Part shown: positions 4,030-27,109 of the stretch, in pieces
How the letters are laid out: each line of letters starts with the position of its first letter
Position numbering within the stretch: position 1 is the first letter of the stretch
NCBI GenBank assembly: GCA_046756725.1
Contig: JBHHWW010000001.1
Span: 1-44,794, forward strand
Length of the DNA stretch: 44,794 nucleotides
Direction of reading: 5' to 3'
Source of the DNA: Nitrospiria bacterium
Lineage (GTDB): Bacteria > Nitrospirota > Nitrospiria > SBBL01 > JAADHI01
Made by a program: the position numbers and the translations under genes
Notes under the pieces: generated by a model
What the model was told of the DNA's origin: nothing
The model's input: the letters and a program-made list of their open reading frames with translations, nothing else
The model's database searches: none

Positions 4030-4058
4030 ACAGCTTATTCCGATACATTGAGGTTTTT

Positions 4059-5145: not shown

Positions 5146-5213
5146 CCCAAATCGATTGTCTTGTCTGCTTGTCTTACACATTATGGATATCTCCGGAATG
5201 AGTGGCATTTGTT

Positions 5214-5242
5214 TTGACACTTCCCGTATCTCCATGTAAAGT
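5214..5242 (+). promoter_or_regulatory. Candidate sigma70-type promoter for the TPR gene
   Basis: TTGACA (5214-5219), 17-nt spacer, TAAAGT (5237-5242). GGAGAGG lies upstream of the ATG at 5267. Confidence 0.4.
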
Positions 5243-5266
5243 AAGGGTATTGGAGAGGAAAACGGG

Positions 5267-8121: not shown

Positions 8122-9591
8122 ATGCTTCCAGAGAAACTTCAAGAAGGATTGACTTTTGATGACGTGATTCTGGTTCCTGCGCGATCCCCTGTGATGCCGC
8201 GTGATGTGAACATTCAAACACGATTGTCCCGACACATCAAGCTCCAAATCCCCATCTTGAGCGCCGCAATGGATACGGTGACCGAATCGAGAATGGCCAT
8301 TGCCATGGCCCGTGAAGGCGGCATCGGCATTCTCCACCGGGCGCTTTCACCTTCGAAACAGGCTTCAGAAATCGATCTTGTGAAAAAATCTGAAAGCGGG
8401 ATGATTGTTGATCCCATTACCATTTCCCCGGATCAAGCGCTTCACGAGGCGTTGGCTTTAATGACCCAATATCGGATTTCAGGTGTTCCGGTGACCCGGA
8501 AAGGAAAGCTGGTCGGCATCATTACAAACAGGGATTTGCGGTTTGAGCACCACCTGGACCAGAAGGTCTCTGACGTCATGACAAAAGACAAGCTGTTTAC
8601 CGTTTCCGAAGGAACCACGTTGGAGGAAGCCCAGAAGATTCTTCATCAGCATAGAATTGAAAAACTCCCTGTGGTTGACGGAGATTTTGAGCTAAAAGGT
8701 TTGATTACCATTAAGGATATTGAAAAGAAAATACAGTTTCCGAATGCCTGTAAAGATCCTCTGGGTCGGCTTCGTGTGGGGGCTGCCGTGGGTGTTGGCG
8801 GAGACTCAAAAGAGCGGATTGATCAACTGATTCGGGCGGAGGTGGACCTCGTTGTTGTGGATACGGCCCATGCGCATTCGGTGTCTGTTTTAGAAGCCAT
8901 TCGTTCGATTCGAGATGCCTATCCTGATCTGGAATTGGTGGGCGGCAATGTTGCGACAGGGGAGGCAACCCTTGATTTAATTAAGAGTGGGGTGGATGCC
9001 GTGAAAGTCGGCGTCGGTCCTGGGTCCATTTGCACAACCCGTGTGATTGCCGGGGCCGGGGTTCCCCAGTTAACGGCCATTTCGGATTGTGCAAAGGCTG
9101 CAAAAAAATTTGACGTTCCGATTATTGCCGATGGGGGGGTTAAATTTTCTGGGGACATTACCAAGGCCATTGCGGCCGGTGCCGATACGGTGATGCTTGG
9201 GGGGCTTTTTGCTGGGGCGGACGAAAGCCCTGGAGAAACGATTCTCCTCCAGGGGCGGAGTTACAAGGTTTATCGTGGCATGGGTTCCATCGGTGCGATG
9301 GAACGTGGCGGAAGAGACCGCTATTTTCAAGAATTTGAACCGGTTTCCAAGCTGGTTCCTGAGGGTATTGAAGGAAGGGTTCCTTCCAAAGGCAGTCTTT
9401 CTGGAATCGTTTTTCAGTTGCTCGGAGGCTTGCGCGCAGGGATGGGCTATTGCGGCACGGGAACGATTGAAGCACTTCGGAAAGATGCCCGTTTTATTCG
9501 CATTACGCATTCCGGAATTCGTGAAAGTCACCCGCACGATGTCATCATCACAAAAGAAGCGCCAAACTATGAGTTGGGCGGAATGTCCTAG
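8122..9591 (+). CDS. guaB: IMP dehydrogenase
   Basis: [11 protein letters not shown]-terminus, tandem CBS region, catalytic loop [14 protein letters not shown], and GGVKFSGD... throughout its 489 aa. Confidence 0.97.
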
Positions 9592-9627
9592 TTGCATATT
9601 TTCGCAACCGAAATCCACAACAACTGA

Positions 9628-11172
9628 ATGTCCAATTTGACCGAAACAATCGTAATTTTAGACTTCGGGTCGCAATACACCCAACTGATTGCCCGCCGCG
9701 TTCGCGAAAGCAAAGTCTATTCGGAAATTGTCCCCTACCATCTGAGCTTCGATAAAATAAAAGCCTACAATCCGGTTGGGATCATCCTTTCAGGTGGCCC
9801 TGCCAGTGTCTATGACCGGGATGCGCCTTTATGTGACCCGCGCATCTTCAACCTGTCCATCCCGATTCTCGGAATCTGTTACGGGATGCAGGTGATGACG
9901 CATCTTTTGGGTGGAGAAATCGCCCGGTCACTCAAGCAGGAATATGGCCGTGCCAGCTTACGTACGGATGGAAAGTCTCTTCTTTTGAAGTCGCTGGCAC
10001 AAAAGATCCCAGTCTGGATGAGTCATGGTGACCGGATTGAAAGCCTCCCTCAGGGTTTTTCTGCCATTGCCGGGACTGAAAATTCACCCAGTGCGCTGAT
10101 AGAGGATGGCAGGCGACATTTTTACGCACTTCAGTTTCATCCTGAAGTCGTACATACGCCGGATGGGCTTCAGATCCTCCAGAATTTTCTTTATCGAATC
10201 TGCCGATGCACGCAGGCGTGGGATCTGGGATCATGGGTGGCAGTGGCGAAAAAAGAGATTGACGCAGCTATTGGCAGTGGTCGCGCCATTTGTGGATTGA
10301 GTGGCGGTGTTGATTCCAGTGTGGCTGCAGTGCTGACCCAGAAGGTGATTGGAAAACGACTGACCTGCATTTTTGTCGACAATGGTCTTTTGCGGAAGGA
10401 TGAAGGCCGAATGGTTGTTCAGGCCTTTAAAAAGCAGCTTAATCTAAATCTCAAATCGATTGATGCATCCGATCTTTTTCTGAAGCGGCTTTCTTCGACA
10501 TCCAATCCGGAAAAAAAAAGAACGATTATTGGACGCACTTTCATTAAAGTTTTTAACGAAGAAGCCAAAAAAGTGGGCAAGGTTGATTTCCTTGTTCAGG
10601 GAACGCTTTATCCGGATGTGATTGAAAGCGTTTCTATCAAGGGACCCTCTGCAACGATCAAAACCCATCACAATGTCGGTGGACTGCCAAAGCGGATGCG
10701 TTTAAAAATGATTGAGCCGCTTCGTTCGCTTTTCAAAGATGAGGTTCGAAGACTGGGGCTCGAGTTGGGAATTCCCGAAGATCTCCTTTATCGACATCCT
10801 TTTCCCGGGCCGGGTTTGGCGGTTCGTATTATTGGAAAATTGTCCAGGGAACGATTAAACTGCTTGCGGGATGCCGATGCAATTTTTGACGAAGAAATTC
10901 GAAAAGGGGGGCTCTATCATAAAATATGGCAGTCTTTTGCAGTCTATCTCCCCATTCGGAGCGTAGGAGTGATGGGGGATGAACGGACCTACGAGAATGC
11001 GATTGCTTTGAGGGCTGTGACCAGTCAGGATGGCATGACTGCAGACTGGTTTGAGTTTCCTTACGATATTTTAAAAAGAATTTCAAACCGGATTATCAAC
11101 GAAGTCAAAGGAGTGAATCGTGTGGTCTACGATATCTCTTCTAAACCTCCCAGCACGATTGAGTGGGAGTGA
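9628..11172 (+). CDS. guaA: GMP synthase (glutamine-hydrolysing)
   Basis: GATase domain ([25 protein letters not shown]), ATP-PPase P-loop SGGVDSSV, and C-terminal dimerisation domain ending ...PPSTIEWE. Confidence 0.97.
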
Positions 11173-11524
11173 ACGCCTTTTTCTTAATTTTAATAGACAT
11201 ATTGCATCCTCAAAGCTAATTTTCTTTCTGGAATCTGAAATGGTTTCCGGAAAGAGGAAATCGCGATGTTTCACCTCGTTGTTTATCATGAAGGAAGGGC
11301 ATTTTATGCCAGTCCTGAGTTGGTCCAGCCTTTGCTTTATTAATAATTCGGAGCAACTCAGGTTGTCCTTGACCTATTTTCGTCATGGCCTTGCGCTCTA
11401 AACGTATGGGTGAGATGCGGTTGGGGCTGAGTATTTCAGCAATGCTGGATGAAGTAGGTGGACAACTTGGGTTGTTCCGAGGAGATACTTTAAAGTTTCA
11501 GGGCTTATTTGCAATGTTTAATAT

Positions 11525-12749
11525 ATGAATCGTTTAGGACGATATGACATCATTGAGGAGGTTGGCCGCGGGGCGATGGGCATTGTCTACCGCGGCTGGG
11601 ATCCTAAAATTAACCGTGCGGTTGCTTTAAAGTGTCTGCGCCCGAGCGTTATTGAATTACGTGAAGGGGCCAGAAAGCATTTTAAGCAGGAAATGTATGC
11701 CCTTGGAAGAATGATTCACCCGAATATCGTGACGATTTTTGATGCGGGAGAAGATCCTTCTACCGGTTATATTTATATTGTTATGGAGTATGTCTCCGGA
11801 TTCTCCCTCGCTCAGCTTCTCAAAGAGAATAGTTCACTGTCCATGGCTCAAACCCTTGAAATAGGCGCCCAAGTTTGCCGAGGTCTTGGCTTTGCTCATT
11901 CAAAGGGTGTGATTCACAGGGATATTAAACCAGGGAACATTCTCTTGTCGAAAGATTTGAAGACGCTTAAGATTACCGATTTTGGCATTGCGCGATTGGA
12001 TACTACCGGCGGATCGCCTGACCGGAACACCGCGTTATATGTCCCCTGAACAGTGTCTGGGGGAAACGCTGGATGAACGATCTGATCTCTTTTCTGTTGG
12101 CAGCCTGCTCTACGAACTTCTGACACATCAAAGGGCTTACCCTGGAGAGACCGTGACGTCCGTGATTTACCAGGTGCTTCATGATACACCCGTGCCGCCT
12201 TCTGATGTTTCTTCTAATGTCCCACCGGATGTGAGTGATGCTGTGATGAAATCCATGCAAAAATCTCGGGAGAAGCGATTCTCCAGTGGGGAAGAGATGG
12301 CCAAAGCCCTTCTTTCTCCAGTGTTTCCCTCTAATATTGATGAACCGGATACCCTGGTGATGACTCAAGAGGCCGTTTCCAGACCACTTCCGTTTCGATG
12401 GCTTCAAATTTCAAGGTGGCAAGTGACCGGTTTGACTGCCATGTTGCTTGTTGTGGTCGGCATGTCCTTCTACTTTTCAAAAAATCAGACAGTGAAAGAG
12501 GTTCGCTCGGCACCTTCTCCCTCTGTTTCCGAGGGATTGATTGTCCTTTCAACGATGCCCAGCGGAGCTGATATTTTGATTAACGGAGATTTAAAAGGTG
12601 TGAGTCCATTGTCTCTCCGTCTTCCTCCGGGTGCCCATGATCTTATTGTGTCAAAGGAGGGGTATTATTCTCTTGAAGCAACTCTGGATTCACCTTCAGG
12701 AAAGGAAGTTCCAATCAAACTTCGATTGATGCCGGAAGACTTGCCATGA
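11525..12749 (+). pseudogene. Hanks-type Ser/Thr protein kinase with a TM segment and C-terminal PEGA domain, interrupted by a 1-nt frameshift
   Basis: ORF A (11525-12049) carries GRGAMGIVY, ALK, HRDIKPGN and DFGIARL, then runs out of frame. ORF B (+1 frame, 11982-12749) resumes with LTGTPRYMSPEQ. It then has a TM helix and a PEGA-like segment (PSGADILINGDLKGVSPL...LPPGAHDLIVSKEGY). The junction must lie within 12002-12017. Confidence 0.8.
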
Positions 12750-14719
12750 AAAGAATGAAAATTATTCTCTATCAGATAAGCGTATTTTTTTGTTGGATCG
12801 CTTTGTTGTTATTGTTTGATCTTCCCGTGGCGCGGGCATTGACGCCACTTCCTCTGAATAAAGGAACCCTTGCGCCGTCGTTTCCGGAATTAAAGGTGGA
12901 ACCATCCCGTCCTTTGATGATTGTCTATTTTTTTAAGCTTTCTTCAAAGCCCTCCCTCAAGGGGCTTGAACATCTGAACCAACTCTACAAGCAATATCGG
13001 AATGCAGGTATTGGCATCATCGCGGTGACTCAGGACCCTTCTCAAAAAATTGCCCGATATTTAAAGAAACACCCCCTGCCTTTTAAAGTCGTAAGAGATC
13101 GTGGAAAGATTTTCGAAGACTACGGCATTCAAGTCGTTTTTCCGACCACATTCCTTCTCGGACCCGGAAAGCGTATTTCGGATATTTTAGTGGGGGGAGG
13201 TCTCTCTTCGCACCACCTGATGACGGCCATTGCGCAACGCAGTCTTCAGATGAAAAAGTCAGAACTGGCCTTGGAACTTTTTACGAAAGTGTTGGATGAA
13301 GACCCTGGAAATGCGGTTGCTCAGTCCGGACTCGGAAGTGTCTATTTAAAAGAAGGCGCGCTTGATCGGGCAGAGGCTGCATTTTCCAAGGCTGCTGATA
13401 AAAAAGCGGATGGTTCGACCCTTGATCCGGATGTCATTCTTGCGAAAGAGGGGTTGGTTGCAGTCCATGTTCAAAAAGGAGAGCCGGAAAAGGCATTGAA
13501 AATTGCGGAAGAGGTGCGCACTGCTGATCCGAAGAGTGGTCTTGCAGACTGGATTGAAGGTGCGGTTCGTGTCCGTCAGGGGGATCATGAAGGGGCCTTG
13601 CAGTCTTTTCATCAAGTCATTGACGGAAACCTGAAAACGGATTGGATGAAGGCGGACGTTTACAACCAGGCTGCGCGCATTTACTCTGAGCAGGGTGATT
13701 TGGGAGACGCAGAGTTGATGTATGACGAGGCGATTGCCCACAATCCTTTTTCTTCAGAAATCCTGACGAATCGGGGGGTGCTCTATGAAAAACAGGGGAA
13801 GCCTCAAAAAGCCCTCGCGTTTTATAGAGAAGCATTGTTGCTTGATCCGAAAGATGAGGTGCCTTTTCTGCTTGCAAAGCGAATGAACCAACATCTTGAT
13901 TTCATAGAAGACGAGGCGAGGCGGAAGCAAATCAATGCCCTGGTTGCTGAACTTTCAGGTCGATTTCAGGATGGGAAATTTTCAAGACCACATCTTTCTG
14001 ACAGTTGGTCATCCCGCCCGATGACGATTGCCTTTCTGGGCATTCAATCCATCGCAGGAGGATTAATCCGTGAGGGAATGGCCACGGTTCTGCAACAGGA
14101 AATTGCGCAGAATATGATGTCTTCCGGCCGTTTTTTGATGGTGGAGCGTGAGGTTATGGACAAGCTCCTTGAGGAGCTGAAACTGGGTTCTTCTGAACTG
14201 ACCAATCAGGAAACAGCGCTTCGACTGGGAAAATTGTTTGCTGCACGTCTGATGATTACAGGCAGTCTTGTTCAGGCCCCCGGAGGCGTTCGCTTAAGTT
14301 TGCGGATCATTGATCCGGAAACTTCAGAGATTAAGATAACCTATGTCGATGAAATTGGTCCTGATAAAAATCTAATTGATCTTGCCGTACAGGCGGGAGA
14401 GCATATCCGACAGAAGATCCATACCCGCTACCGGCTCCGTGGAAAGATTGCAATGGTTGGAGAGGGTGGCGAGGTGGTGATTAACATTGGAAGAAAGCAT
14501 GGTGTCTTGCCGGGAATGCGCTTGAAGGTGATCTCCAATGGAGAACCTTTACAGGTGGACGGGCAGATCATTGGCCATAAAAAGAAGCAGATCGGTCTCA
14601 TTGAAATTATCGAAGTGGAACAGAGTGTTTCCGCCGCTAAGTTAATCGAACAGTCTGAAAAAATACAAAAAAATCAAAAGGTTATGGAAGATGTCAGTTC
14701 AGTTAAGTCGGATTTCTGA
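12746..14719 (+). CDS. Secreted multidomain protein: Cys-less redoxin-like fold + TPR repeats + CsgG/TolB-N-like module + small beta domain
   Basis: The ATG overlaps the kinase stop (ATGA). The signal/TM segment is followed by an AhpC/TSA-like region with FFKLSSKPS in place of a CxxC motif. TPRs follow (AVAQSGLGSVYLKEG...), then the module PMTIAFLGIQS...MVEREVMDKLLEELKLGSS...RLGKLFAARLMITGSL. Confidence 0.7.
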   Translation: MKRMKIILYQISVFFCWIALLLLFDLPVARALTPLPLNKGTLAPSFPELKVEPSRPLMIVYFFKLSSKPSLKGLEHLNQLYKQYRNAGIGIIAVTQDPSQKIARYLKKHPLPFKVVRDRGKIFEDYGIQVVFPTTFLLGPGKRISDILVGGGLSSHHLMTAIAQRSLQMKKSELALELFTKVLDEDPGNAVAQSGLGSVYLKEGALDRAEAAFSKAADKKADGSTLDPDVILAKEGLVAVHVQKGEPEKALKIAEEVRTADPKSGLADWIEGAVRVRQGDHEGALQSFHQVIDGNLKTDWMKADVYNQAARIYSEQGDLGDAELMYDEAIAHNPFSSEILTNRGVLYEKQGKPQKALAFYREALLLDPKDEVPFLLAKRMNQHLDFIEDEARRKQINALVAELSGRFQDGKFSRPHLSDSWSSRPMTIAFLGIQSIAGGLIREGMATVLQQEIAQNMMSSGRFLMVEREVMDKLLEELKLGSSELTNQETALRLGKLFAARLMITGSLVQAPGGVRLSLRIIDPETSEIKITYVDEIGPDKNLIDLAVQAGEHIRQKIHTRYRLRGKIAMVGEGGEVVINIGRKHGVLPGMRLKVISNGEPLQVDGQIIGHKKKQIGLIEIIEVEQSVSAAKLIEQSEKIQKNQKVMEDVSSVKSDF

Positions 14720-15431
14720 GCTTTCTTTATTCTGCATTGTGGTATTGACCGGGTTTGTTTTTACGGCTTGTTCCGGTCGGCAGATATCCCAAAAAAATCG
14801 ATCCTCTCCCCGGGAAACCCTGACTGTTGCGGTAATGCCCTTTCAAGTACAGCATATTCAGCGACCTGTTTCAGGAAGCCCTGTGCCGATTTCCGCGTTA
14901 TCTCGATCTCTGGTTGATCAAATTGAAGAAAAATTCATTGGATATCCGGGGGTGTCCCTCGTGGATCGGGAAGAGATTGATCAGGTCTTCCAAGAACTCT
15001 TTTTATCCAGCCATGAAGCCAGCCAGTCGGCGGTGCGGCTTCGGTTGGGAAGGCTTCTGGGCGCACAATATCTGGTGATGGGAACTTATACGCTGGTTGG
15101 TAAAGCCCTTCGAATGGATGCACGTATTGTCGAAGTCGAGCGGGGACGCGTTGTTGATAGCGTTTCAATGGATGGTTCTGTGACAGAAAGGGAGGCCATT
15201 GAGAGGTCTTTTTCTGAAAAAATCGTTGCAACCTTCTTGTCGAGCACAAGACGGTCGCTTCCTGAAAAGATGGTGAGCAGCGATGACCACTACTTAAAAG
15301 GGCGTTCACTTGAAAGAGAAAAAAACTTCACAAAGGCTTTGGTGCATTATAAAGCAGCCTTTTCCCTCAATCCTGAAAATCATAAAGTTTTAGATCGAAT
15401 CGAAGCATTGTCATTCAAGGAGATGGAATGA
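14691..15431 (+). CDS. Lipoprotein with a CsgG/TolB-N-like module + one TPR
   Basis: Lipobox VFTAC. The module is LTVAVMPFQ...LVDREEIDQVFQELFLSS...RLGRLLGAQYLVMGTY. A C-terminal TPR is present (ALVHYKAAFSLNPENH). It overlaps the upstream gene by 29 nt. Confidence 0.7.
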   Translation: MSVQLSRISELSLFCIVVLTGFVFTACSGRQISQKNRSSPRETLTVAVMPFQVQHIQRPVSGSPVPISALSRSLVDQIEEKFIGYPGVSLVDREEIDQVFQELFLSSHEASQSAVRLRLGRLLGAQYLVMGTYTLVGKALRMDARIVEVERGRVVDSVSMDGSVTEREAIERSFSEKIVATFLSSTRRSLPEKMVSSDDHYLKGRSLEREKNFTKALVHYKAAFSLNPENHKVLDRIEALSFKEME

Positions 15432-16759
15432 AGTTCAATCTTAAAAAGGATTTTTTGAGAGATAACTTACTGATTAAAGAAAGAAATATAGACTGTTTTT
15501 CCCATATGGAGACTTATATTTTTTTTCTGGCATGGCTGCTTGTTTTCTCAATGTCATCGTCCGGGTGGTCCAAGGAATTACCCGGGGCTGCGCTTCCTAA
15601 AGCTTCCTTTACCCACAAAGAAATGAAGGAAATCTACAGACGTGGCCGTTATGACCAGGTAATTTCAAAATTAAGCAATCTTAATGAACTGGATTCTACT
15701 CAAGCCCTTTTCCTGGGCTTGAGTTATCTCAGAGAGGGTTCGTCAAAGAAGGCAATTTCTGCTTGGCAGCATTATGTTCACCTTGAAGAAGGAAGTGAGG
15801 GAGGTAGGACTGTCTCTCAGTACTTGACGATTCTTATGCAGAGAGAGGCGCGCCGGTCCGCCCGGAATCTTGTCTTGAAAGAAAAAAACCTTTTCAGGAA
15901 AATAAATCCAAAAGCCATCGCCGTTTCTCCATTTCAAAACCTGGGAAGCGAAGCGTTTTCTCCTCTTTCCAAGGGGTTGGCGGCCATGGTAATGACTGAT
16001 CTTTCGAAAGTAAATGAGTTGACCGTTGTTGAGCGGATTGAAATGTCTGCCATACTGGATGAGCTCAGGTTGTCAAAATCAGGATTGGTCGATAAAAAAA
16101 CAGCCCCTCGTGTTGGACGGCTTGTCGGGGCGGGAAAAGTGACGACTGGAACATACCTTGATGTTGAAGACAAGATCATGCGCCTAAATGCGGCGGTGAC
16201 ACTGACAGAGAACGGACGGCTTCTTTCTGCCTCAAATTCATCCGGGGAAATACCCACTTTTTATATTTTGGAAAAAAGACTGGTGTTTCAGATTTTGTGT
16301 GGTATCGGTTATTGCCCTGAAAATCTCGATAAACAAGTGCGTCTCGAAATCGAGAAAGTTCATACAAAAAATTTCCAGGCCTTCCGTTTTTATTCTGAGG
16401 GGCTTGATTTTCTTGACCAGGGGAAATATCGAAAGGCCTCCCAGGCCTTCTTTTTTGCGCTTGAAGAAGACCCGGCATTTAAGTTGGCCAGAAAGGCTTT
16501 ACTTGAAACCCCGATTCTTCCATTTAATCTGGATGCGATGATTGCGGGTGGTGAATCGATCGTTTCAGGCGAAAATACCTTATTGACCCTGGGGCCCCTC
16601 CTGGTTTCCCCCTTGCCTGTCAAGGTCGCCGAATCTGATGGAACGTCGGTCAGGATTACGCCGGAAATTTTCCAGCAGCCGGTGACAGCAATCAAGGCGG
16701 GGGCGCCTGCGAATGTCCAGGTCCAAATCCAGATTAATATCTCAGAATCCGGACCATAG
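15428..16759 (+). CDS. Secreted TPR-like protein with a CsgG/TolB-N-like module
   Basis: ATGA overlap with the upstream gene (alternative start ATG 15506 directly before the hydrophobic signal). The module is KAIAVSPFQNLGS...VVERIEMSAILDELRLSKSG...RVGRLVGAGKVTTGTY. TPR-like helices flank it. Confidence 0.7.
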   Translation: MKFNLKKDFLRDNLLIKERNIDCFSHMETYIFFLAWLLVFSMSSSGWSKELPGAALPKASFTHKEMKEIYRRGRYDQVISKLSNLNELDSTQALFLGLSYLREGSSKKAISAWQHYVHLEEGSEGGRTVSQYLTILMQREARRSARNLVLKEKNLFRKINPKAIAVSPFQNLGSEAFSPLSKGLAAMVMTDLSKVNELTVVERIEMSAILDELRLSKSGLVDKKTAPRVGRLVGAGKVTTGTYLDVEDKIMRLNAAVTLTENGRLLSASNSSGEIPTFYILEKRLVFQILCGIGYCPENLDKQVRLEIEKVHTKNFQAFRFYSEGLDFLDQGKYRKASQAFFFALEEDPAFKLARKALLETPILPFNLDAMIAGGESIVSGENTLLTLGPLLVSPLPVKVAESDGTSVRITPEIFQQPVTAIKAGAPANVQVQIQINISESGP

Positions 16760-16814
16760 TATAAAGGATTTAAGTGCCCTTGATGCCCGTTTGTTGTAAA
16801 ATGAGAAAGGTCCC

Positions 16815-19800
16815 ATGGTGAAAAAAAGATGCTTTCTTTCGGTATGGCCCTTGTCTATTTTCCCCCTTGTTTTTTTTATGCTTCTTACAGCTTGTAGCGC
16901 TTCTGGTCCCTCTTTAGAAAATATTGAAAAAAGTGCTGGTTCAGAAGGAATGGTTTCTGTCGGGATTACTCTTAGAGTGCCTTCGGGCAGTAACCGTTTG
17001 CATCAGTCAAAACTCTCTGCGTTGACATTAGACGATCTCCGCTCGCTCAAGATTACCGTGACAGACGCCAATGGTTTGGTATTGACTGCTTCAGACGACA
17101 TTTTTGTCTCTCCCGGTCAACTCATTGAAGTCTTTCTGAGTGTTCCTGCCGGACCTGCACGTCAATTCAGCGTTGAACTTTTTGACCGCGATGGAAGAGT
17201 GGTGCTATTCGGGATGACGGAAAGGGATCTGGGTGGACTTGCTTCTATCAGCATCCCGATTGTTGTGTCTCCGCCCCTGTCGATTGTACCTGAAATAATG
17301 ACGGTTTCGACGGGGCATTCCGTACAGATCAATGTCATTTTAAGTGATGCTTTTAAAAGAAGTTTTGCGGATCCGACATTGCGTTGGGAAGTTGAGGGGA
17401 TTATTGGTGGAAACACTGCATTTGGCTTAATTAAAATAACGAATTCTCTCTCGGCTTCTTACACTGCTCCGGAAAATATACCGGTGCAGGCACAGGTTCT
17501 TGTTAAGGCGCACAGCGTTTCCAGACCCGCATATTTTGCTTCAGTCATGATGGACATTATTCTTTCGCCGCAGGGACGATTTGTTGACAACGGTTCAGGA
17601 TCTGACGAAACAGGTCCGGATGGCACTGTGTGCGGGGGAGAGACTTCTCCCTGTAAAACCGTGACGAAAGGGATTGAGGTGGCGAACCCCGGAGACACTG
17701 TTTTTATCAAAGCCGGCAGGTATGCCTTCACGACTTTTGGTCCTCCTGCCATTGAGATGAAGGCGGGAGTGAAAATTCAAGGGGCTGGGGCAGAGGTGAC
17801 CTTTTTTGATTTTACGAGTGCCCGATCCGATGGCGGAATCGGCATCCGTGGTGCGAATGGCTCTGCAATTTCAGGCCTGACCCTCAGTGATGTCGGGTTG
17901 AATCAAATTGATCTGATCGAGACGGACCATACTGATTTCAGGATCAGTGGCAATATTTTTCTCTGGCAATGTGAGACCTGTCTCCACATAAAAAATGCGG
18001 TCCATATTCAGGGTGGAAGCGGAATCAGTGTGACTGGAAATGTTTTCAGTCAGAGGAGCTTGGGTTCGATTGTCCCGAATAGTACGTCAATTCTAATTGA
18101 AGGGAGCGCGACCCCAGCGATTGTAAATAATGCTATTTGGCGAAATCATATCGGTATATTGATTAGAGGCCAGGCGAATGCTCTGATCGAGGGCAATGAA
18201 ATCCTTGGGAATGAACGTGGTATTCAGGTTGAGGCGTTCGCTGTTCCGGATATAGGCGGTGGTGGCCTTGGCAGTCTTGGCGGTAATATCTTAAGTTGTA
18301 ATACGTCGGTGGATCTTTTGAATAACACCCCCGGGATGCTTTTTGCACAGAGCAATCAATGGGATCATGAGTCGCCCGAAAGAGGCTCCTTGATTGGCAA
18401 TGGAATCGATATTGTCATGGGTCATGGGGAGGGTAATGTTGATGCCAGTGGCGCATCATTTTACTCTTTTGCCCCTTGTCAGGTGGGCATCACAGTCTCG
18501 TCGAATAGTGGTTTGGCGACAAGCGAAGTCGGCGGTATCGATACGTTTACGGTGGTTTTGAATACAGAACCCACTGAAAACGTCATTCTTGATCTGGCGA
18601 GCAGTGATGTGACGGAAGGAATTGTTACTCCTTCCATCCTCACTTTTACGCCGGTAGATTGGGATATCCCGAAGCTTGTGACAGTGGCGGGACTTGATGA
18701 TGCCCTTGAAGATGGCGATGTTCTTTACCGTATTCTCATTGCCCCAACAGAAAGCGTTGATCCCTTGTATCACGGGATCGACCTGGCTGACCCGTTGGTG
18801 ATGAATCAGGATAACGATGTTTCTCTTTCTGTGTCTGTACAGGGGAGCGGCAGTGTTGCGATGAATCCGCCTGGGGTCCTTTGTTTTCTTGATTGCACGG
18901 AAATTTTTACGGAAGGGACTTCTGTTCTTTTGACAGCGGCCTCGGATTCCCAGTTTGAATTCGTGGGCTGGGATGGAGATTGTGTCGGAAATGCCCTTTC
19001 GGTCACGGTGGATATGGCCGATGTACGACATTGCTCCGCGACTTTTCGTTTGAAAACATTTACGCTCAGCGTCATTCCCACAGGAAGTGGAGATGGAATG
19101 GTAAGATTGAACCCGGATAGCATTCACTGCCCACCGGATTGTTCAGTCGTTTTTCCAATCGATACGCAGATTTCTTTACTTGCCAGTCCGCAGACAGGTT
19201 CATTTTTTGCCGGATGGACAGGTCATCCAGACTGCGACGATGCGTTGGTCTCAATGACTCAGGATATGACTTGTGAAGCAAGGTTCGAAACAAACGCCCC
19301 GCCGCGGATTACCCGTTTTACAAGTGGTCGATCCCTGGTTCCACTTGGAGAAACGACCAGACTCTTTTGGACTGTAGAAGGTTTTGCAAGCTCACTGCAG
19401 CTCAATCCCGGAGGGGTCGAAGTCCGTGATTTAACGACGACGAATGTGATCCCTTTTCCGGTTGGAAAGGCTTCGTCCAATGCCCGATCCTACTTCAAAC
19501 TATTTGCAACAAATCCGGTATTGATGGAAGAGGCAGCGGAACTTACTTGGGCGAAAGGAATGGAGGGGAGCGGTTTCAATGAAGGTCTGGGTATTGTCGT
19601 GCTTTCGGATGGCAGCAGCATTGTGACGGGCCGTTTTGAAGGGGTGGCGACTTTTGGTTCGGGAGAAGAGTCTGAGACAGTTCTTAGGTCTTTTGGGGGA
19701 TCCGATATCTATGTCGCGCGTTACCATGCAGACGGTTCTCTTATTTGGGTGAGACAAGCCGGAGGCGCTCAGGATGACTGGAGCAACGCCATTGCAATCC

Positions 19801-20912
19801 TTCCAGACGAGAGTGTGGTTTTGACGGGCCGCTTCGATTTGGAAGCCACCTTTGCACGGGGAGCGACCAATGAAACAGTGCTTGTCTCAGAAGGAAGAGA
19901 GGATGTTTTTATCGCCCGTTATAGCCGGGAGGGTGTTCTTGTCTGGGTAAAACAGGCTGGAGGAGGGAGTCGGGAAGAAGGGTTCGGGGTTGCGTCTTTT
20001 CCTGATGGCAGTTTTGTGATCACCGGTTTTTTCTCATCAACGATCCACCTTGGTGCTGGTGAGGAAAACGAAACAAGCCTCAGATCCGAAGGCAGGTCAG
20101 AGATCTTTATCGCACGCTACAACGCGAATGGAACGCTTTCATGGGCGAAACGGGCTGGGGGGACAGGTTCTGAATCGGGTCTTGCCTTGGCGACCTTTTC
20201 GGATGGAAGTGCCGTAGTGACTGGAAGGTTCAGCCAGACCATTGTTTTTGGCGATGCTGAGCCAGATGAAACAGAATTATCATCGATAGGGAATGATGAT
20301 ATCTTTATTGCCCGCTACCATGCAGATGGAATGTTTGACTGGGCACGGCAGGCAGGGGGAAGCGGGAAGGATAGAGGCCATGGTATTGCGTCTTTGCCGA
20401 ATGGCAGTGTTGTTGTCATCGGCCGATTTGAGGAGCGTGCAACCTTTGCCCCGGGAGAACAGAATCAGACAAGCTTGTTATCGAGCGGGTTGGATGATTT
20501 TTTCCTGGCACGCTATCAGCTGAATGGTTCGCTTGACTGGGTCAAACAGGGTGGTGGAGTCGGCAGCGATGTCGGAAATGCGGTTGCCGCATTCCCGGAT
20601 GGAAGTGTCGTGACCACAGGACACTTCACGGATGCAGCCACTTTCGGGTCTTTAGAAAGACAAGAGGCCGTTCTCACATCAAATGGAGAAGAGGATGTTT
20701 TTGTTGCGACCTATCACTCGGACGGCACTTTAAACTGGGTGATGCAGACAGGGGGATCGGGTTTTGACAGCGGTAAGGGTGTCGCATCTGCCTCTGATGG
20801 GAGCGCTGTGATGACGGGAAAAACCGTTGCCGGAAGTTTTGACACTTTCATTACACGCTACACGCCCATCAATTATCGATTCATTGAGTTTTTTCTTCAG
20901 CCAGATGGTTGA
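16815..20912 (+). CDS. Giant (1365 aa) multidomain lipoprotein: Ig-like regions, right-handed beta-helix (PbH1) region, Calx-beta-like domain, two InlB-B-repeat-like domains, 7-bladed SBBP beta-propeller
   Basis: Signal peptide with lipobox LLTAC. Beta-helix repeats are ISGNIF / VTGNVF / IVNNAIWRNHIGILIRG / IEGNEILGNERGIQV. Two Cys-containing units have the pattern GSG.V..NP....C...C...F..GT.V.L.A......F.GW.G.C. Six exact 66-aa SBBP-type repeats follow. Confidence 0.85.
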   Translation: MVKKRCFLSVWPLSIFPLVFFMLLTACSASGPSLENIEKSAGSEGMVSVGITLRVPSGSNRLHQSKLSALTLDDLRSLKITVTDANGLVLTASDDIFVSPGQLIEVFLSVPAGPARQFSVELFDRDGRVVLFGMTERDLGGLASISIPIVVSPPLSIVPEIMTVSTGHSVQINVILSDAFKRSFADPTLRWEVEGIIGGNTAFGLIKITNSLSASYTAPENIPVQAQVLVKAHSVSRPAYFASVMMDIILSPQGRFVDNGSGSDETGPDGTVCGGETSPCKTVTKGIEVANPGDTVFIKAGRYAFTTFGPPAIEMKAGVKIQGAGAEVTFFDFTSARSDGGIGIRGANGSAISGLTLSDVGLNQIDLIETDHTDFRISGNIFLWQCETCLHIKNAVHIQGGSGISVTGNVFSQRSLGSIVPNSTSILIEGSATPAIVNNAIWRNHIGILIRGQANALIEGNEILGNERGIQVEAFAVPDIGGGGLGSLGGNILSCNTSVDLLNNTPGMLFAQSNQWDHESPERGSLIGNGIDIVMGHGEGNVDASGASFYSFAPCQVGITVSSNSGLATSEVGGIDTFTVVLNTEPTENVILDLASSDVTEGIVTPSILTFTPVDWDIPKLVTVAGLDDALEDGDVLYRILIAPTESVDPLYHGIDLADPLVMNQDNDVSLSVSVQGSGSVAMNPPGVLCFLDCTEIFTEGTSVLLTAASDSQFEFVGWDGDCVGNALSVTVDMADVRHCSATFRLKTFTLSVIPTGSGDGMVRLNPDSIHCPPDCSVVFPIDTQISLLASPQTGSFFAGWTGHPDCDDALVSMTQDMTCEARFETNAPPRITRFTSGRSLVPLGETTRLFWTVEGFASSLQLNPGGVEVRDLTTTNVIPFPVGKASSNARSYFKLFATNPVLMEEAAELTWAKGMEGSGFNEGLGIVVLSDGSSIVTGRFEGVATFGSGEESETVLRSFGGSDIYVARYHADGSLIWVRQAGGAQDDWSNAIAILPDESVVLTGRFDLEATFARGATNETVLVSEGREDVFIARYSREGVLVWVKQAGGGSREEGFGVASFPDGSFVITGFFSSTIHLGAGEENETSLRSEGRSEIFIARYNANGTLSWAKRAGGTGSESGLALATFSDGSAVVTGRFSQTIVFGDAEPDETELSSIGNDDIFIARYHADGMFDWARQAGGSGKDRGHGIASLPNGSVVVIGRFEERATFAPGEQNQTSLLSSGLDDFFLARYQLNGSLDWVKQGGGVGSDVGNAVAAFPDGSVVTTGHFTDAATFGSLERQEAVLTSNGEEDVFVATYHSDGTLNWVMQTGGSGFDSGKGVASASDGSAVMTGKTVAGSFDTFITRYTPINYRFIEFFLQPDG
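19503..20888 (+). repeat. Tandem coding repeats, period exactly 198 nt (66 aa), SBBP-type beta-propeller blades
   Basis: The blade motif [DE]-[DIV]-F-[IV]-A-R-Y-x-x-[DN]-G-x-L-x-W-[VA]-[KR]-Q-[AG]-G-G starts at 19701, 19899, 20097, 20295, 20493 and 20691. A degenerate first unit lies near 19503 and a shortened closing strand at 20835. Confidence 0.8.
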
Positions 20913-20921
20913 TCAAGTTAA

Positions 20922-22502
20922 ATGTATGAACGATTGTGGGGCAAACTTAAGGAGAATGGCGTGAGGATTCTTGTTTATTGGGTCCTGTCTTTTTGCCTGT
21001 TTTTCTTAGTGACATATCCAGCTTTGCCTGCTGAACCATCACAAGAATATTATATTTTTATTTCAGACGGAATCTCAAAATTGCAGGAGAATGATTTTTC
21101 CGCCGCACTCGGGTATTTTGAGACAGCCCTCTCTCTGGACCGCGAGGGTGTGGAGGCCCATTATTATCTTGGCGTGACCCATGCGCGTACAAGCAGAGTT
21201 AAAGAAGCTGAAACACATTTACTTAAAGCACTCTCAATTGACCGGACCTTCCTTGCGGCTTACTTTGACTTGGGTGTCCTGTATTATCAAATTAGAGAGG
21301 ACGAAAAAGCGTTGAAGGCCTTTGGGACAATCGAGCAGATTGACCCGGGACGGGCTCGGGTTCACTACTACCAAGGCTTGATTTATCGGCGTAATGGAAA
21401 AATGGATGAAGCGGCAGATAAGTTTGAAAAAACCGTCTTGTTGGATCCGAGCCTTGATGCTGAAGTTCGTTTCCAGGCAGGGACCGCCCATTTTGAGGGA
21501 GGGGCGCTTCAATCGGCAAAAGAGGCCTTTGAAGGGATTGTCAACGGTTTTCCTGAAGGCACTCTGGCCACCCCGGCGCGTGATTTCATTGATCAGATTG
21601 ATCGGGTGATGAAAGAAAAAAAGAGATGGCGACTCAATGCTTCTCTTGGTCTTCAGTATGATGACAATGTGATTCTTGATCCGAATACAGACTCTCCTGC
21701 AGCGAATCTTGTCTCGGACAAAGATGGTTTTTTAACGACTATTTTTCTTCAAGGTCGATATCAGTGGTTGAAAATGGATCATTGGGATGGAAATCTTGCT
21801 TACAGTTTTTATCAGAATCTCCATAACGACAGTGCCTTGGATGACTTCAATATCCAGAATCATCATTTTTTTATCAGTGGTGAGCACAGGGAAGGTCGAT
21901 ATGATTTACGCCTGAAATATGAGATTCAGCTTGCGACATTGGGAGGATCTTCTTTCCTCTTCCGACAAACAGTGGGGCCTGAATTGAACATTCGACACTC
22001 AGATGACCACCTGACGGAAATTGCCTATGAACTTGGCAAGAAAAATTTTGAGGCGGTTAGCCCGCTTTTTTCCAGTAATTCTGATCGCGATGTGAATACC
22101 CAGAAGATTGCCATGACACATTTTGTCCAGTTTCCGGGATATTTTATGTTACATGGCGGTTATGCTTTTGAAAAAGAGAATGCGAAGAATCGCCCAAACC
22201 AGGATGACTGGACCTATGGTGGGAATCGTTATCGGGTCGGCGGCCGTTCCCCTTCCTGGAAAGAGTGGACCCTGTCTTTTGAAGGTGAATGGCGGGATCG
22301 TCGCTACAGCAATTTGAACCAGTTATCCCCTCAAAAAAAAAGGCGTGATGAGGACCTTCTCCTGATTTTCGTGCTTTCCCGACCGATCCGTGAGTATGTC
22401 GATCTCGCTATCCAATCCCTCCACCAGAAAAACCATTCAAATATCCCTGCCTTTGATTATCGCCGAAACATAACGGGTTTGATCGTGACAGTGAGTTATT
22501 GA
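20922..22502 (+). CDS. TPR + outer-membrane beta-barrel protein (Slam/DUF560-like architecture)
   Basis: The signal peptide is followed by about 200 aa of TPRs (ALGYFETALSLDREGVEAHYYLG..., ALKAFGTIEQIDPGRARVHYYQG...). About 300 aa with alternating beta-strand pattern follows (WRLNASLGLQYDDNVILDPN...). It ends ...ITGLIVTVSY, an aromatic terminus typical of OM barrels. Confidence 0.6.
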   Translation: MYERLWGKLKENGVRILVYWVLSFCLFFLVTYPALPAEPSQEYYIFISDGISKLQENDFSAALGYFETALSLDREGVEAHYYLGVTHARTSRVKEAETHLLKALSIDRTFLAAYFDLGVLYYQIREDEKALKAFGTIEQIDPGRARVHYYQGLIYRRNGKMDEAADKFEKTVLLDPSLDAEVRFQAGTAHFEGGALQSAKEAFEGIVNGFPEGTLATPARDFIDQIDRVMKEKKRWRLNASLGLQYDDNVILDPNTDSPAANLVSDKDGFLTTIFLQGRYQWLKMDHWDGNLAYSFYQNLHNDSALDDFNIQNHHFFISGEHREGRYDLRLKYEIQLATLGGSSFLFRQTVGPELNIRHSDDHLTEIAYELGKKNFEAVSPLFSSNSDRDVNTQKIAMTHFVQFPGYFMLHGGYAFEKENAKNRPNQDDWTYGGNRYRVGGRSPSWKEWTLSFEGEWRDRRYSNLNQLSPQKKRRDEDLLLIFVLSRPIREYVDLAIQSLHQKNHSNIPAFDYRRNITGLIVTVSY

Positions 22503-22570
22503 AGGACTGGTCTCGTTATTTCTTAAAGTGTTCATGGGTGTTCCAGTTCGTCGGCGGGTTGCCCTTCCAA

Positions 22571-23368
22571 TTATTTCGAAATCGCTTTTTTGAGCGATGT
22601 GATCAGGTCTGATAATTTGGCAAGATAATTCGGGTTGTCTGGTGCGGTTGCGATGATTCGGACAAGGGCGCTTCCGACGATGATGCCATCTGCACTTCCG
22701 GCGATTTTTGAGGCTTCTTCAGGGCTTGAAATACCGAAACCGGCGGCGACCGGTCGGTCGGTCATTTCTTTCAGTGCTGAAATTCGTTGAGAGATGGATG
22801 CCCAGTCCTTCAATGTGGTGCCTGTCACGCCGGTGACGGGAACATAATAAACAAAGCCGCTTCCCGCCTTCAAAATCTTTTCAATTCGTTCAGGCGGAGT
22901 GGTCGGTGCGACCAGAAAAATCAGGTCAATCAGGTGTTTCCGGCCTTGATGGATGAAATCTCTGGCTTCTTCAATAGGAAGGTCGGGAATAATGATTCCA
23001 TTGACGCCGTTTCGTCGGGCCGCTTTAAAGAAGTTTTCAAGTCCGAAGGCATAAATCGGGTTGCAATAGGTCATGAGAATGAGGGGAATTTTTGTCTGCC
23101 TTCGAAGGGTTTTGACGAGGTCGAGCACTTTTGTGAGTGTGACGCCCTTTTGAAGGGCTCGATCTGCGGCTTGCTGAATGGTGGGACCATCAGCAATCGG
23201 GTCTGAAAACGGGATGCCAATTTCAATGATGTCTGCCCCTGCTTTCTCCATTTCGAAGACGATGCTTAGGGTTTCATCCAGGGATGGGTCGCCTGCCATT
23301 ACATAGGCGATCAGGGCTTTGTCACCCATTACGCCCACATTTTTAAGCGTTGCCTCAATCCGGCTCAT
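22571..23368 (-). CDS. trpA: Tryptophan synthase alpha chain
   Basis: [11 protein letters not shown]..., [22 protein letters not shown]. The ATG at 23368 is preceded by GGGAGG and overlaps the trpB end by 14 nt. Confidence 0.93.
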
Positions 23369-24587
23369 TTTGCCTCCCGTGTTTTTCTCTTGTCGCTCCC
23401 GACAGGCCGCAGATCTTTGCAATCTGGTCCACATCTTTGTCGCCGCGCCCTGAGAGGTTGACGATAATGAGTTGATCTTTTTTCATGGAAGGGGCGATTT
23501 TAACGAGATGGGCAATCGCGTGTGATGATTCGAGGGCAGGGAGAATGCCTTCTGTTTCTGAAAGGAGTTGGAAGGCGGCGAGCGCCTCGTCATCAGTCAC
23601 AGAAGTGTAGGTAATTCGGCCACTGTCCCGGTAATAGCTGTGCTCCGGCCCGACGGCGGGGTAGTCTAGGCCAGCGGAAACGGAATGGGTTGCCTGGATT
23701 TGTCCATCTGCGTTTTGGAGCAGCATGGACATCGTGCCGTGAAGCACTCCAATTTCGCCGCTTGCAAATCGGGCGGCATGTTTACCAGTTGTAATTCCCA
23801 GTCCGCCTGCCTCGACACCGACCAAAGCAACAGAAGAATCGGAAAGGAAGGGGTAAAAGAGGCCGATGGCATTGCTCCCGCCGCCGACACAGGCAAGTAA
23901 AAGGTCCGGGAGTTGACCGGTGAACCGGAGGATTTGTTGTCGCGCCTCCTGACCGATGACGGCCTGGAAATCCCGGATCATCATCGGGTAGGGGTGGGGA
24001 CCGAGCACGGAGCCGAGAATATAATGGGTGTCTTTGACGTTTGTGGTCCAGTCACGAAGCGCTTCATTGATGGCATCTTTCAGGGTCCTGCTCCCGACAT
24101 CGATTCCCGTCACTTTGGCACCCAAGAGGCGCATTCGAATGACATTGAGCGCCTGTCGCTCCATATCTTCAGTGCCCATGTAGATTTCACAGGCCAGGCC
24201 GAAGCGGGCGGCGACGGTGGCGACGGCCACGCCATGTTGCCCCGCGCCGGTTTCCGCGATGACACGCTTTTTCCCCATGATCCGTGTCAGTAAGATTTGC
24301 CCGATGGTGTTGTTGATTTTATGCGCCCCTGTGTGACAAAGATCTTCTCTCTTGAGGTAGATTTGGGCGCCTCCCAGATGTTCGGTCAGACGTTTGGCAA
24401 AATAGAGCGCGGTGGGACGGCCCACATAATTTTTGAGATTTTCGCTTAACTCATTTTTAAACGCCGGTGTTCTCCGGACAGCCTGGTATGTAAGTTCTAA
24501 TTCCTGGAGTGCAGGGATGAGCGTTTCGGCAACATATCGTCCACCGTAGGGGCCGAAGCGCCCTTTTTTATTCGGTAGCTGCGGCAT
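23355..24587 (-). CDS. trpB: Tryptophan synthase beta chain
   Basis: [31 protein letters not shown] (PLP lysine), [17 protein letters not shown]. Confidence 0.97.
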
Positions 24588-25218
24588 TGCCAGTTCCTTT
24601 TTCTTTTGCGGCAGAAATAAATGCTCTCATTTTCCTTGGGTCTTTCTTCCCTTTTTGTCTCTCGACCCCGCTGCTGACATCGACGCCGTAGGGCTGAACG
24701 GTCTGGATGGCTGTTTTAACATTATTTGAGGTCAGTCCTCCAGCCAGAATCACTTTTCCGAATTGTTTTGCAGGGGTGGCGAAGTTCCAATTGAACGCGA
24801 TTCCACTGCCGCCCGCCACTTTTTCGTGATAGGTATCCAGAAGAATGGCGCGTCCGGAAGCGGAGATAAACCCCTTGAGGGAGCGTTCATCTTTGACCTG
24901 GATGACCTGGATCGCCCGGTGGGAAAAGTGGAGGAGTGTTTTGTGGGGAAAATCTCCGTGAAATTGAATCAAATGGACGCCGGAGAGGGCGATCAGATTC
25001 TGAATATCTTCAATTTCTGAGGCGGTAATCACGGCCACTGTGGTGATAAAGGGAGGCAGCTTTGAGATGATTTTTTTTGCTTCGATGGCTGAAATATGTC
25101 GTGGGCTTTCCGGGGCGAAGACGAAGCCCAATGCATCCGCACCCAGTGCTACCGCTGAAAGCGCATCTTCTAAATTTGTAATGCCGCAGATCTTGACTTT
25201 CACCTCTGAAGGTCTCAT
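24568..25218 (-). CDS. trpF: Phosphoribosylanthranilate isomerase
   Basis: [12 protein letters not shown]..., [17 protein letters not shown]. It overlaps trpB by 20 nt. Confidence 0.9.
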
Positions 25219-25237
25219 TCCTGAAAATCTCTAATGA

Positions 25238-26029
25238 TTACAAGCCTTCCGTAAACAAGCCTTTTATTTTTTCGTTTATTTTTTCAGAAGCCATGAGTGA
25301 TTCGCCAATTAAAACAGCATCGATCCCGGCCTCTCCAAGCCGGACGATTTCCCTTCGGGATGAGATGCCGCTTTCGCTGATGATGGTGCGATCAGATGGA
25401 ATCTCCGGAAAAATCCGGAAGGTCGTTTCAAGATCGGTCTGAAATGTTGTCAGGTCTCGATTATTGATGCCGATCATGGGTGCCCATTCAATGACTCGCT
25501 CCAATTCTTTTTCATCATGAATTTCGACAAGCACGTCGAGTGAAAGTTCTTGAGCCAGATCAAAATAATCTTTCATCTGTCTTTTTTCCAGAAGTGCTGT
25601 GATGAGAAGGATTGCATCCGCTTCCCAGGCCCGTGCCTCGTATATTTGTAGCTCATCAATCATAAAATCTTTTTGCAAGAGGGGCAGGGAGACCTTTTTC
25701 CGAACCTTATGAATATAGGAGGGATGTTCCAGGAAATAATGTTCTTCCGTCAGTACGGAAAGGGCTGCCGCGCCATTGTCTTCATAAATTTGTGCAATTT
25801 CAATGGGGTCAAAAGATGCTCGAATGATGCCTTTTGAGGGGGAAGCCTTCTTTATTTCAGCGATGAGATGGGGGCGGGGGCGACCTTGATGTGTCACTGC
25901 ATTTTTGAAAGGACGGGTTGGTTCTGTATCTGCAATTTTTGATTGAACTTCCTGAAGATATCGCCGACCTTTTCGCTTGCCCACGGCCGCCCGCTTTGTT
26001 GCCGCTATTTTATCTAGGATGTTCATCAC
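25238..26029 (-). CDS. trpC: Indole-3-glycerol phosphate synthase
   Basis: LIAEIKKASPSKG, LSVLTEEHYF, LLQKDFMIDELQIYEAR, GINNRDL, ISESGI. Confidence 0.93.
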   Translation of the reverse strand: MMNILDKIAATKRAAVGKRKGRRYLQEVQSKIADTEPTRPFKNAVTHQGRPRPHLIAEIKKASPSKGIIRASFDPIEIAQIYEDNGAAALSVLTEEHYFLEHPSYIHKVRKKVSLPLLQKDFMIDELQIYEARAWEADAILLITALLEKRQMKDYFDLAQELSLDVLVEIHDEKELERVIEWAPMIGINNRDLTTFQTDLETTFRIFPEIPSDRTIISESGISSRREIVRLGEAGIDAVLIGESLMASEKINEKIKGLFTEGL

Positions 26030-26038
26030 GATACTGGA

Positions 26039-27049: not shown

Positions 27050-27109
27050 TCTGTGATTCCTCAAAGCAGTGGATTTGTGAGTTCCTTTCGTTGTTTTGAT
27101 TCGAGTGCC

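Follow-up and report, generated by a model that had tools for sequence, protein, structure and literature searches.

A possible Slam-like surface-display module in a conserved envelope gene cluster of Nitrospirota

The lipoprotein exporters of the type 11 secretion system (T11SS; Pfam family SlipAM, PF04575), among them Neisseria Slam1 and Slam2, Xenorhabdus NilB and HrpB, are outer-membrane proteins of about 500 amino acids (aa) with an N-terminal periplasmic TPR domain and 14 barrel strands, and their genes adjoin that of a Sec-dependent lipoprotein. DUF560/type 11 secretion proteins, with their 14-stranded barrel and N-terminal TPR domain, have been described across Proteobacteria, and their known cargo combines variable N-terminal domains with an 8-stranded C-terminal barrel (PMC8406197). 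Here, we examine a locus in a 44,794-nucleotide (nt) stretch of DNA from a Nitrospiria bacterium (contig JBHHWW010000001.1 of assembly GCA_046756725.1; the whole stretch is called the window, and positions refer to it), which encodes a Ser/Thr kinase (K), three paralogous secreted proteins or lipoproteins (A, B and C), a giant lipoprotein (D) and a TPR-barrel protein (E). Related loci carry further genes upstream, labelled S1, S2, F and T. The parts are of known kinds, whereas their combination and the lineage are new, and we found no description of a system of this composition in the literature searched, as the original prediction on this DNA had supposed. Our reading, plausible but tentative, is that the locus serves to display variable lipoproteins on the cell surface through a Slam-like module, which has a periplasmic scaffold of TolB fold and is coupled to Ser/Thr-kinase signalling.

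The window holds the distal part of a conserved envelope cluster of Manganitrophaceae-type Nitrospirota. A profile of C, run against 185,579 species genomes with narrow search patterns that make the count a lower bound, recovered at least 11 loci, ten in Nitrospirota and one in a member of the Desulfobulbia, and a profile of A recovered 43 loci from metagenome contigs; a single-protein scan of metagenome contigs with A found no close relative. The order K-A-B-C-D-E occurs in more than 20 independent loci with differing flanks, and those of known origin belong to Nitrospirota of the Manganitrophaceae type. The flanks of these relatives differ from those of the window, and the cluster is therefore conserved as a unit. 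The prospect that these genes might be syntenic in no related genome falls away, because K-A-B-C-D-E recurs across Nitrospirota in different surroundings. BLAST and hidden Markov model maps give the canonical order in relatives as S1-S2-F-T-K-A-B-(optional lipoprotein)-C-lipoprotein(s)-E, with one or two lipoproteins before E and about 12 genes in all; in Ca. Manganitrophus the locus occupies ~2.053-2.074 Mb of CP114553.1. The conserved order thus stands as predicted, but the six genes once taken as a complete system are the distal part of this longer cluster. Protein A of the window is 53-57% identical to Manganitrophaceae-type A proteins, which are 58-93% identical among themselves, and the window therefore represents an outlying lineage; A of one further relative, L023, is 43% identical to that of the window.

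Protein E (20922-22502, plus strand) is a 526-aa protein with a signal peptide, a periplasmic TPR domain at residues 41-231 and, in an AlphaFold2 (AF2) model with a pLDDT of 91, a 14-stranded outer-membrane barrel at residues 236-525, which agrees with the TPR and beta-barrel architecture predicted for it. An exact look-up of the sequence returned no record. The database version of E has 492 aa, starts 34 codons downstream (past window positions 20922-21030) and would miss the signal peptide; read as 526 aa, or from a GTG at codon 14, the protein has a normal signal peptide ending in ALPA. In Pfam, E scores 26.2 bits against TPR_Slam, for which the cut-off is 35.2, and has multiple TPR matches and a 24-bit match to MtrB_PioB; a weak match to EpsL was also obtained. 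About 40 homologues are 36-51% identical to it, and those that are named come from Nitrospirota, Nitrospiria and Ca. Manganitrophaceae.

The family of E bears more clearly on its relation to Slam. SlipAM is matched by 19 of 46 family members at an E-value of 1 or below (best 4e-11), BBP2_2 is matched by 20 of the 46, and precomputed matches to PF04575 exist for the syntenic orthologues P0008, P0012 and P0020. A profile of the barrel only gathered 8,969 clusters (50% identity) from among 1.84 billion representatives, most of them 400-530 aa long with the barrel at the C-terminus; among 100 representatives that were scanned, 38 match SlipAM (E-value of 0.01 or below, best 3.5e-14), the barrel family matched most often, and 32 match BBP2_2. 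Given these SlipAM counts, the family overlaps DUF560, and by sequence E appears to be a member of a large, mostly unannotated TPR-barrel family that does so. The Slam features found for E are the 14 strands, the N-terminal TPR domain and the adjoining lipobox protein D, whose gene lies 9 nt away; in relatives, too, all lipoproteins of the cluster sit immediately to one side or the other of E.

Protein D (16815-20912, plus strand) is, as claimed, a 1365-aa lipoprotein (lipobox LLTAC, Cys27) with beta-helix and beta-propeller domains. By Pfam and NCBIfam profiles, a conserved N-terminal module (residues ~43-250) is followed by a DUF1565/NosD beta-helix (254-551), by repeats that include Flg_new_2 (~556-830) and by an SBBP/DUF5122 beta-propeller (~830-1365), and the protein matches the Leptospira surface-protein families LIC10774 and LipL53; a homologue search with residues 1-260 gave no match at an E-value of 1e-3 or below. 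In relatives the slot before E always holds lipoproteins, from one to three of them. Every D-type protein, the 545-aa protein of L007 and the additional copies that lie between B and C included, begins with a lipobox, save one whose open reading frame (ORF) misses its start, and an N-terminal module of about 200 aa is common to all lipoproteins of the cluster. Past this module the passengers vary, with mostly a DUF1565 helix and then Big_7, fn3, Flg_new_2 or Big_2 repeats, and some have no Pfam match. The slot lipoprotein of L023 has a lactonase-type propeller with Calx-beta and no beta-helix, and the SBBP propeller was found in D of the window alone and in no relative. Cargo would be expected to look like this, with constant machinery next to a lipoprotein that varies but keeps a common handle.

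The three paralogues share one alpha/beta module (BLASTP identities of 23-28%, E-values of 1e-7 to 3e-9) together with TPRs, and both the paralogy and the CsgG/TolB-N-like nature proposed for the module are borne out. Pfam matches CsgG to all three proteins, LpoB to A and C, FlgO to B and FlgT_C to A, and finds TPRs in each. Protein A (12746-14719, plus strand; 657 aa) has a signal peptide, a thioredoxin-like AhpC-TSA domain at residues 58-150 (window 12917-13195), about six TPRs at ~160-375, the TolB-N/CsgG-like module at ~430-560 and an FlgT_C-like beta domain at 575-641. The fold-level match of its first domain to ResA stands, but the active-site position reads YFFKxxSKPS, without a cysteine or a CxxC motif, in the window protein as well as in 12 orthologues. 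The thioredoxin fold of A is redox-dead and is possibly a binding or chaperone domain. Protein B (14691-15431, plus strand; 246 aa) is a small lipoprotein whose lipobox, VFTAC, is kept in orthologues; it consists of the module (Pfam CsgG, 1.5e-6; FlgO) and one TPR.

Protein C (15428-16759, plus strand; 443 aa) was examined through an AF2 model with a pLDDT of 84, Foldseek and an orthologue alignment. An N-terminal hydrophobic helix is followed by TPR-like helices (residues 63-150), the module in TolB-N fold (160-292), TPRs (302-379) and a disordered tail. The tail (residues 380-443, window 16565-16756) comprises a disordered linker and then a strand-like motif, NVQVQIQINI..P, that is kept in orthologues and could dock into a barrel or sheet. 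The best Foldseek match of the model is the TolB N-domain, with a root-mean-square deviation of 2.5-3.4 Å over about 136 residues, and the next are the CadC periplasmic domain, GNA1162, LpoB, CsgG, the Vibrio LPHT ring, PelC and FlgT. Searches by sequence against the Protein Data Bank, with a profile of C and with A, were swamped by TPR proteins and yielded only the ResA-like match for the first domain of A.

Two of the names among these folds, CsgG and TolB, do not fit the paralogues. They are not CsgG channels, since the CsgG match (28-36 bits) covers only the first half of the profile, at about positions 3-100 of 210, and since the model of C is a compact alpha/beta module without transmembrane hairpins. 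TolB was likewise rejected as their identity, for the likeness concerns the fold of the N-domain only, there is no propeller, and no tol-pal genes lie nearby. The Vibrio H/T-ring proteins FlgT, FlgO and FlgP share the alpha/beta fold, as seen in the FlgT_C, FlgT_M and FlgO matches in Pfam and in Foldseek matches to FlgT (3w1e) and to the LPHT ring (8z5n); however, no flagellar genes are found in the window or in related loci, and the TPR and thioredoxin-like additions are particular to the present proteins. Several proteins of the TolB-N/LpoB/CsgG/PelC/FlgT fold build rings beneath the outer membrane.

Rings of this kind accompany exporters of another sort. The PelBC exporter (9h80), BcsC and PgaA resemble the locus in that a TPR-barrel protein goes together with a small lipoprotein of TolB-N-like fold, and both components have Foldseek matches here: the best full-length matches of E are BcsC (9b8a) and PelBC (9h80_M), both TPR plus barrel, ahead of the 14-stranded OmpG, FadL and CymA, and the module of C matches PelC (9h80_A) weakly (E-value 5.6e-3, TMt 0.47). 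The cluster could then export a polysaccharide, with E as a TPR-porin, B (together with A and C) as a PelC-like ring, D as a beta-helix enzyme that trims or modifies the polymer and the GT2 protein of relatives as an aid to synthesis. The DUF1565/NosD/Beta_helix domain of D suits such a role, as the DUF1565/NosD type of beta-helix is common in polysaccharide lyases and epimerases; the BBP2_2 matches of the E family and the weak EpsL match of E itself point the same way, as does the convergent GT2 gene (249 aa in some loci) that follows the cluster in many relatives.

We nevertheless find polysaccharide export rather unlikely as an account of this locus. The barrels of PelB and BcsC have 16 strands. 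That of PgaA has 16 as well (PMC8406197), whereas E has 14. Neither the window nor the conserved part of the cluster has a synthase, co-polymerase or c-di-GMP receptor, the GT2 gene is missing here as it is in the loci of the Manganitrophus group, and the neighbour of the barrel is a giant lipoprotein that varies from locus to locus, to the point that in L023 the beta-helix is lacking.

In the display module that we favour, D would be exported by Sec, lipidated and transported to the outer membrane, and E would move it to the cell surface, where its beta-helix, repeats and propeller may serve as an adhesin or an enzyme. Proteins A, B and C, with B anchored by its lipid, would form a periplasmic scaffold beneath the outer membrane, holding the cargo or encircling the barrel as the PelC ring encircles PelB. 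The kinase, with its cytoplasmic Hanks domain, single transmembrane helix and periplasmic PEGA domain, would report the state of the apparatus to the FHA and sigma-54 regulators that adjoin the cluster in relatives. A sensor, a scaffold, a cargo and a translocator had been proposed from the start; translocation by E, formation of a scaffold and signalling are what we infer from the genes, domains, folds, paralogy, synteny and variable cargo slot described above.

The comparison with T11SS is close in architecture and in the profile matches of the E family, to SlipAM as well as TPR_Slam, but it differs in several respects. The host belongs to the Nitrospirota and not to the Proteobacteria, the conserved part of D-type proteins is N-terminal, and three TolB-fold/TPR proteins and a kinase are present that the known systems do not need. 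A number of results weigh against a display module. E itself has no SlipAM match at an E-value of 1 or below, its sole match to a barrel family in Pfam is the marginal one to MtrB_PioB, and no Slam structure appears among its Foldseek matches. D has no match of TbpBBD type in Pfam or NCBIfam, and profile searches of the two databases found no C-terminal 8-stranded barrel such as known Slam cargo carries, its C-terminus being the SBBP/DUF5122 propeller. The label Slam-like accordingly holds for the strand number, the TPR domain and the family-level SlipAM matches, but not for a SlipAM match of E itself or a Slam-cargo barrel in D. Compared with the canonical cluster, the copy in the window is also four to five genes short and its kinase is broken; S1, S2, F and T are all absent from the 44.8 kb. 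Lastly, some distant relatives of E and A keep other company. Distant E homologues in L003, L004/L005 and L067 have a FecR-domain gene directly 3', and in L004/L005 a CHASE2 cyclase is nearby; distant A-like proteins (27-32% identity) in L038, L040, L043 and L044 occur with T and K only, with no B, C, lipoprotein or barrel detected near them. A protease-kinase-A triad without cargo or barrel implies that A is not simply a secretion scaffold, and its primary role may be in signalling.

These last results are the ground for another account, in which the locus is a trans-envelope sensor built on a protease-kinase-A core. D would be a surface or periplasmic receptor that binds a ligand and is held at the outer membrane by E; A, B and C would relay its state to the PEGA domain, FHA and sigma-54 proteins would give the output, and display of D would be a means and not an end. 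Besides the recurrent triad and the FecR and CHASE2 neighbours of the barrel homologues, several observations favour it. In L048, modules of A type form part of a fusion with a cyclase and a CHAT protease; C-like genes elsewhere neighbour a CHASE2 protein and a fusion of CsgG with a caspase (others lie 3' of a MacAB-TolC-like pump); and L021 and L023 have FHA and sigma-54 regulators next to the cluster. C, moreover, resembles the periplasmic sensor domain of CadC (3ly9) over 247 aligned columns, both being built of an alpha/beta subdomain and, after it, a bundle of helices, and it matches NCBIfam TIGR04510, an example of the 'TolB-like + TPR' sensor modules found in cyclases and regulators; unlike CadC-type modules, however, those of the present locus sit on separate secreted or lipidated proteins and are not fused to a transducer, and the similarity is one of fold only. 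On the other side, the window combines an interrupted kinase and a missing protease with intact A to E, which would be odd if the locus served signalling alone; the diversity of passengers fits adhesins or enzymes equally well; and no ligand or output gene was identified. We therefore consider a sensor of this kind unlikely on balance.

The gene contents of the distant loci suggest an order of assembly. The oldest association is, on this evidence, that of a protease, a signalling enzyme and a TPR/TolB-fold protein, to which Nitrospirota added B and C (by duplication), lipoproteins, the barrel and a CsgG module. L048 (7889-19971) shows another signalling system that uses this periplasmic module. 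A 1113-aa protein there joins Guanylate_cyc, CHAT, TPR and a TolB-like module, and its neighbours are a barrel of FadL type, a TPR protein, a Glucodextran_B/Big_13 protein that also has the module, and a Ser/Thr kinase carrying an FGE-sulfatase domain. In L067, a SlipAM-positive distant homologue of E is followed by the FecR gene and then by a protein that exceeds 1100 aa and has Flg_new_2 repeats, a distant parallel that speaks for the display module.

The kinase, predicted as a single membrane Ser/Thr kinase gene with a PEGA domain, does have the kinase, transmembrane and PEGA parts, but in the window its frame is broken. Of the six consecutive same-strand genes that had been described, A to E therefore stand at their predicted positions, while the kinase consists of two overlapping ORFs in frames shifted by 1 nt. 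The first (11525-12049, plus strand) encodes the N-terminal part of a Hanks-type kinase with glycine loop, VALK, HRD and DFG (Pfam Pkinase, 7.5e-38, positions 1-149 of 263); DFG occupies residues 152-154 of 174, and because of the frameshift a stop follows 20 codons later. The second (11982-12749, plus strand) encodes the C-lobe (..DRLTGTPRYMSPEQ..; Pkinase 156-256), a transmembrane helix (12423-12476) and the periplasmic PEGA domain (~12534-12737; 1e-11). The shift falls in the activation loop, in the interval 11985-12047 (plus strand), likeliest at ~12006-12018 in CCGGCGG, and deletion of any single base in 11985-12047 restores one ORF of 407 aa; intact orthologues have 416-509 aa. The N-terminal part (residues 1-162) is 66-71% identical to these orthologues, and the alignment holds as far as DFGIARLD. 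At the break the orthologues read DFGIARLDNTALTQTDRLTGTPHYMSPEQ, and the window reads DFGIARLDTT, then, after the change of frame, ADRLTGTPRYMSPEQ. All catalytic motifs are thus kept but are divided between two frames, and no single frame contains the complete catalytic domain. Either the gene became a pseudogene very recently or the break is an error of sequencing; the scaffold-cargo-barrel part is all that can function in this genome if the sequence is right.

A broken kinase raises the question of whether the whole locus is decaying, a rearrangement having cost the cluster its front and set guaBA before what is left, the kinase having since turned into a pseudogene and the other genes having ceased to work as a system. 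The absence from the window of S1, S2, the CsgG-family gene and the TPR-trypsin gene would agree with this, as would the 353-nt spacer at 11172-11525, which contains no remnant of T, and the housekeeping flanks, guaBA and trpEGDCFBA, which are unlike those of any relative. Against decay, the five long ORFs (246-1365 aa) are intact, about 50% identical to their orthologues and conserved in the columns that orthologues conserve; the kinase is one base off with its motifs kept, a shift that could be an assembly error; and other parts of the genome may hold the missing genes. We regard a decaying remnant as improbable. An anti-phage or other conflict system built on the kinase and protease is more improbable still, to the point of being barely credible: the PADLOC models PD-T4-6 and mad6, which describe defence by a single kinase gene, match the kinase domain, and RT-Protease models hit the trypsin domain that relatives carry, but these are matches to generic domains, A to E and the CsgG gene have no PADLOC match, and all parts except the kinase domain are extracytoplasmic, with signal peptides, lipoboxes or an outer-membrane barrel.

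The genes that relatives carry upstream broaden the picture. F is a full-length CsgG-family gene (103-105 bits) and T a TPR-Trypsin_2 protease. S1 comprises one to three tandem small secreted proteins of ~95 aa in mature form, rich in Asn, Ser, Gly and Gln and with an N-terminal CLxxC, and S2 is a secreted protein of ~160 aa rich in Glu and Lys. The S1 and S2 genes precede F in L021 (2111-3504), L009 (1457-3234), L015 (1662-3304) and L024 (4671-6115), and also in L030, L028 and L036. The arrangement recalls, by analogy, curli subunits and their accessory proteins, although neither S1 nor S2 has a Pfam match, be it to curlin, CsgF or CsgE. The likeness to CsgG/HfaB channels is accordingly twofold, in the N-terminal half of the CsgG profile that A, B and C match and in the full CsgG gene that follows small Asn/Ser-rich proteins in relatives, but the window has neither the true CsgG gene nor the small proteins.

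Regulators stand at the borders of the cluster in some relatives. In L021, of the Manganitrophus group, sigma-54 enhancer-binding proteins, one of them with two FHA domains, are encoded on both sides (662-1681 and 19645-21206), and in L023 three FHA proteins are encoded upstream (1169-5339). They are likely partners of the Ser/Thr kinase, as in known circuits of Hanks kinase, FHA protein and sigma-54 activator, which likewise have a membrane kinase with an extracytoplasmic domain; the window differs from these in its frameshifted kinase, and no FHA or sigma-54 activator genes were seen among its ORFs scanned. A more far-reaching version of the display module can be drawn from all these genes together, which we offer as a rather unlikely conjecture: an undescribed envelope machine of manganese-oxidising-type Nitrospirota, in which a DUF560-related translocon, ringed in the manner of PelBC by TolB-fold/TPR proteins, would export giant lipoproteins by way of their shared N-terminal module, in place of the C-terminal barrel of known Slam cargo, and would be joined to a CsgG-type fibre-secretion module and a kinase/FHA/sigma-54 circuit, the whole building and regulating a surface layer in contact with minerals.

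In the window, seven ORFs on the plus strand lie between guaB-guaA (8122-11172, plus strand), which flank the cluster on its 5' side, and the convergent trpEGDCFBA operon (22571-29177, minus strand) on its 3' side. The tight packing described originally holds, with ATGA overlaps at 12746 and 15428 and an overlap of 29 nt between A and B at 14691; the gap between C and D is 55 nt and that between D and E is 9 nt. Such packing of A to E is compatible with one operon without proving one. Scans of 11000-23000 for sigma-70 promoters and terminators gave no excess over shuffled sequences, and the sigma-54 promoter pattern had 45 matches against 39 expected. A sigma-54-like sequence upstream of the kinase, TGGTCCAGCCTTTGC at 11321-11335, has two mismatches, is not above chance and is not taken as evidence. 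A 47-aa ORF at 11386-11529 overlaps the start codon of the kinase in an ATGA and has no similarity to the TPR-trypsin gene found at that place in relatives.

The trp operon of the window is complete, with trpE, G, D, C, F, B and A. The listed ORFs of trpG (27110-27898, minus strand) and trpE (27657-29177, minus strand) overlap by ~240 nt, probably because the longest trpG ORF begins too far upstream. No tRNA genes were found in the window. Positions 29839-44714 are taken up by a respiratory gene cluster. It encodes several cytochromes c, two NuoL/M-like proteins (Proton_antipo_M), a bd-like oxidase subunit of 833 aa, a fusion of cytochrome c with an EB_dh domain, and Rieske and cytochrome b proteins; we take it to be of the unusual terminal-oxidase cluster type of Nitrospirota.

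What the locus adds to the described systems is a TPR-barrel family related to Slam in Nitrospirota, adjoining lipoproteins that are built differently from known cargo and accessory proteins that the known systems lack. If our reading is true, the export of surface lipoproteins would reach more widely than is now described, and its rules would extend beyond Slam cargo with a C-terminal barrel. For the Manganitrophaceae, in whose case a comparative-genomics paper does not treat the make-up of the cell surface, the lipoproteins of the cluster would then also be candidate surface proteins.

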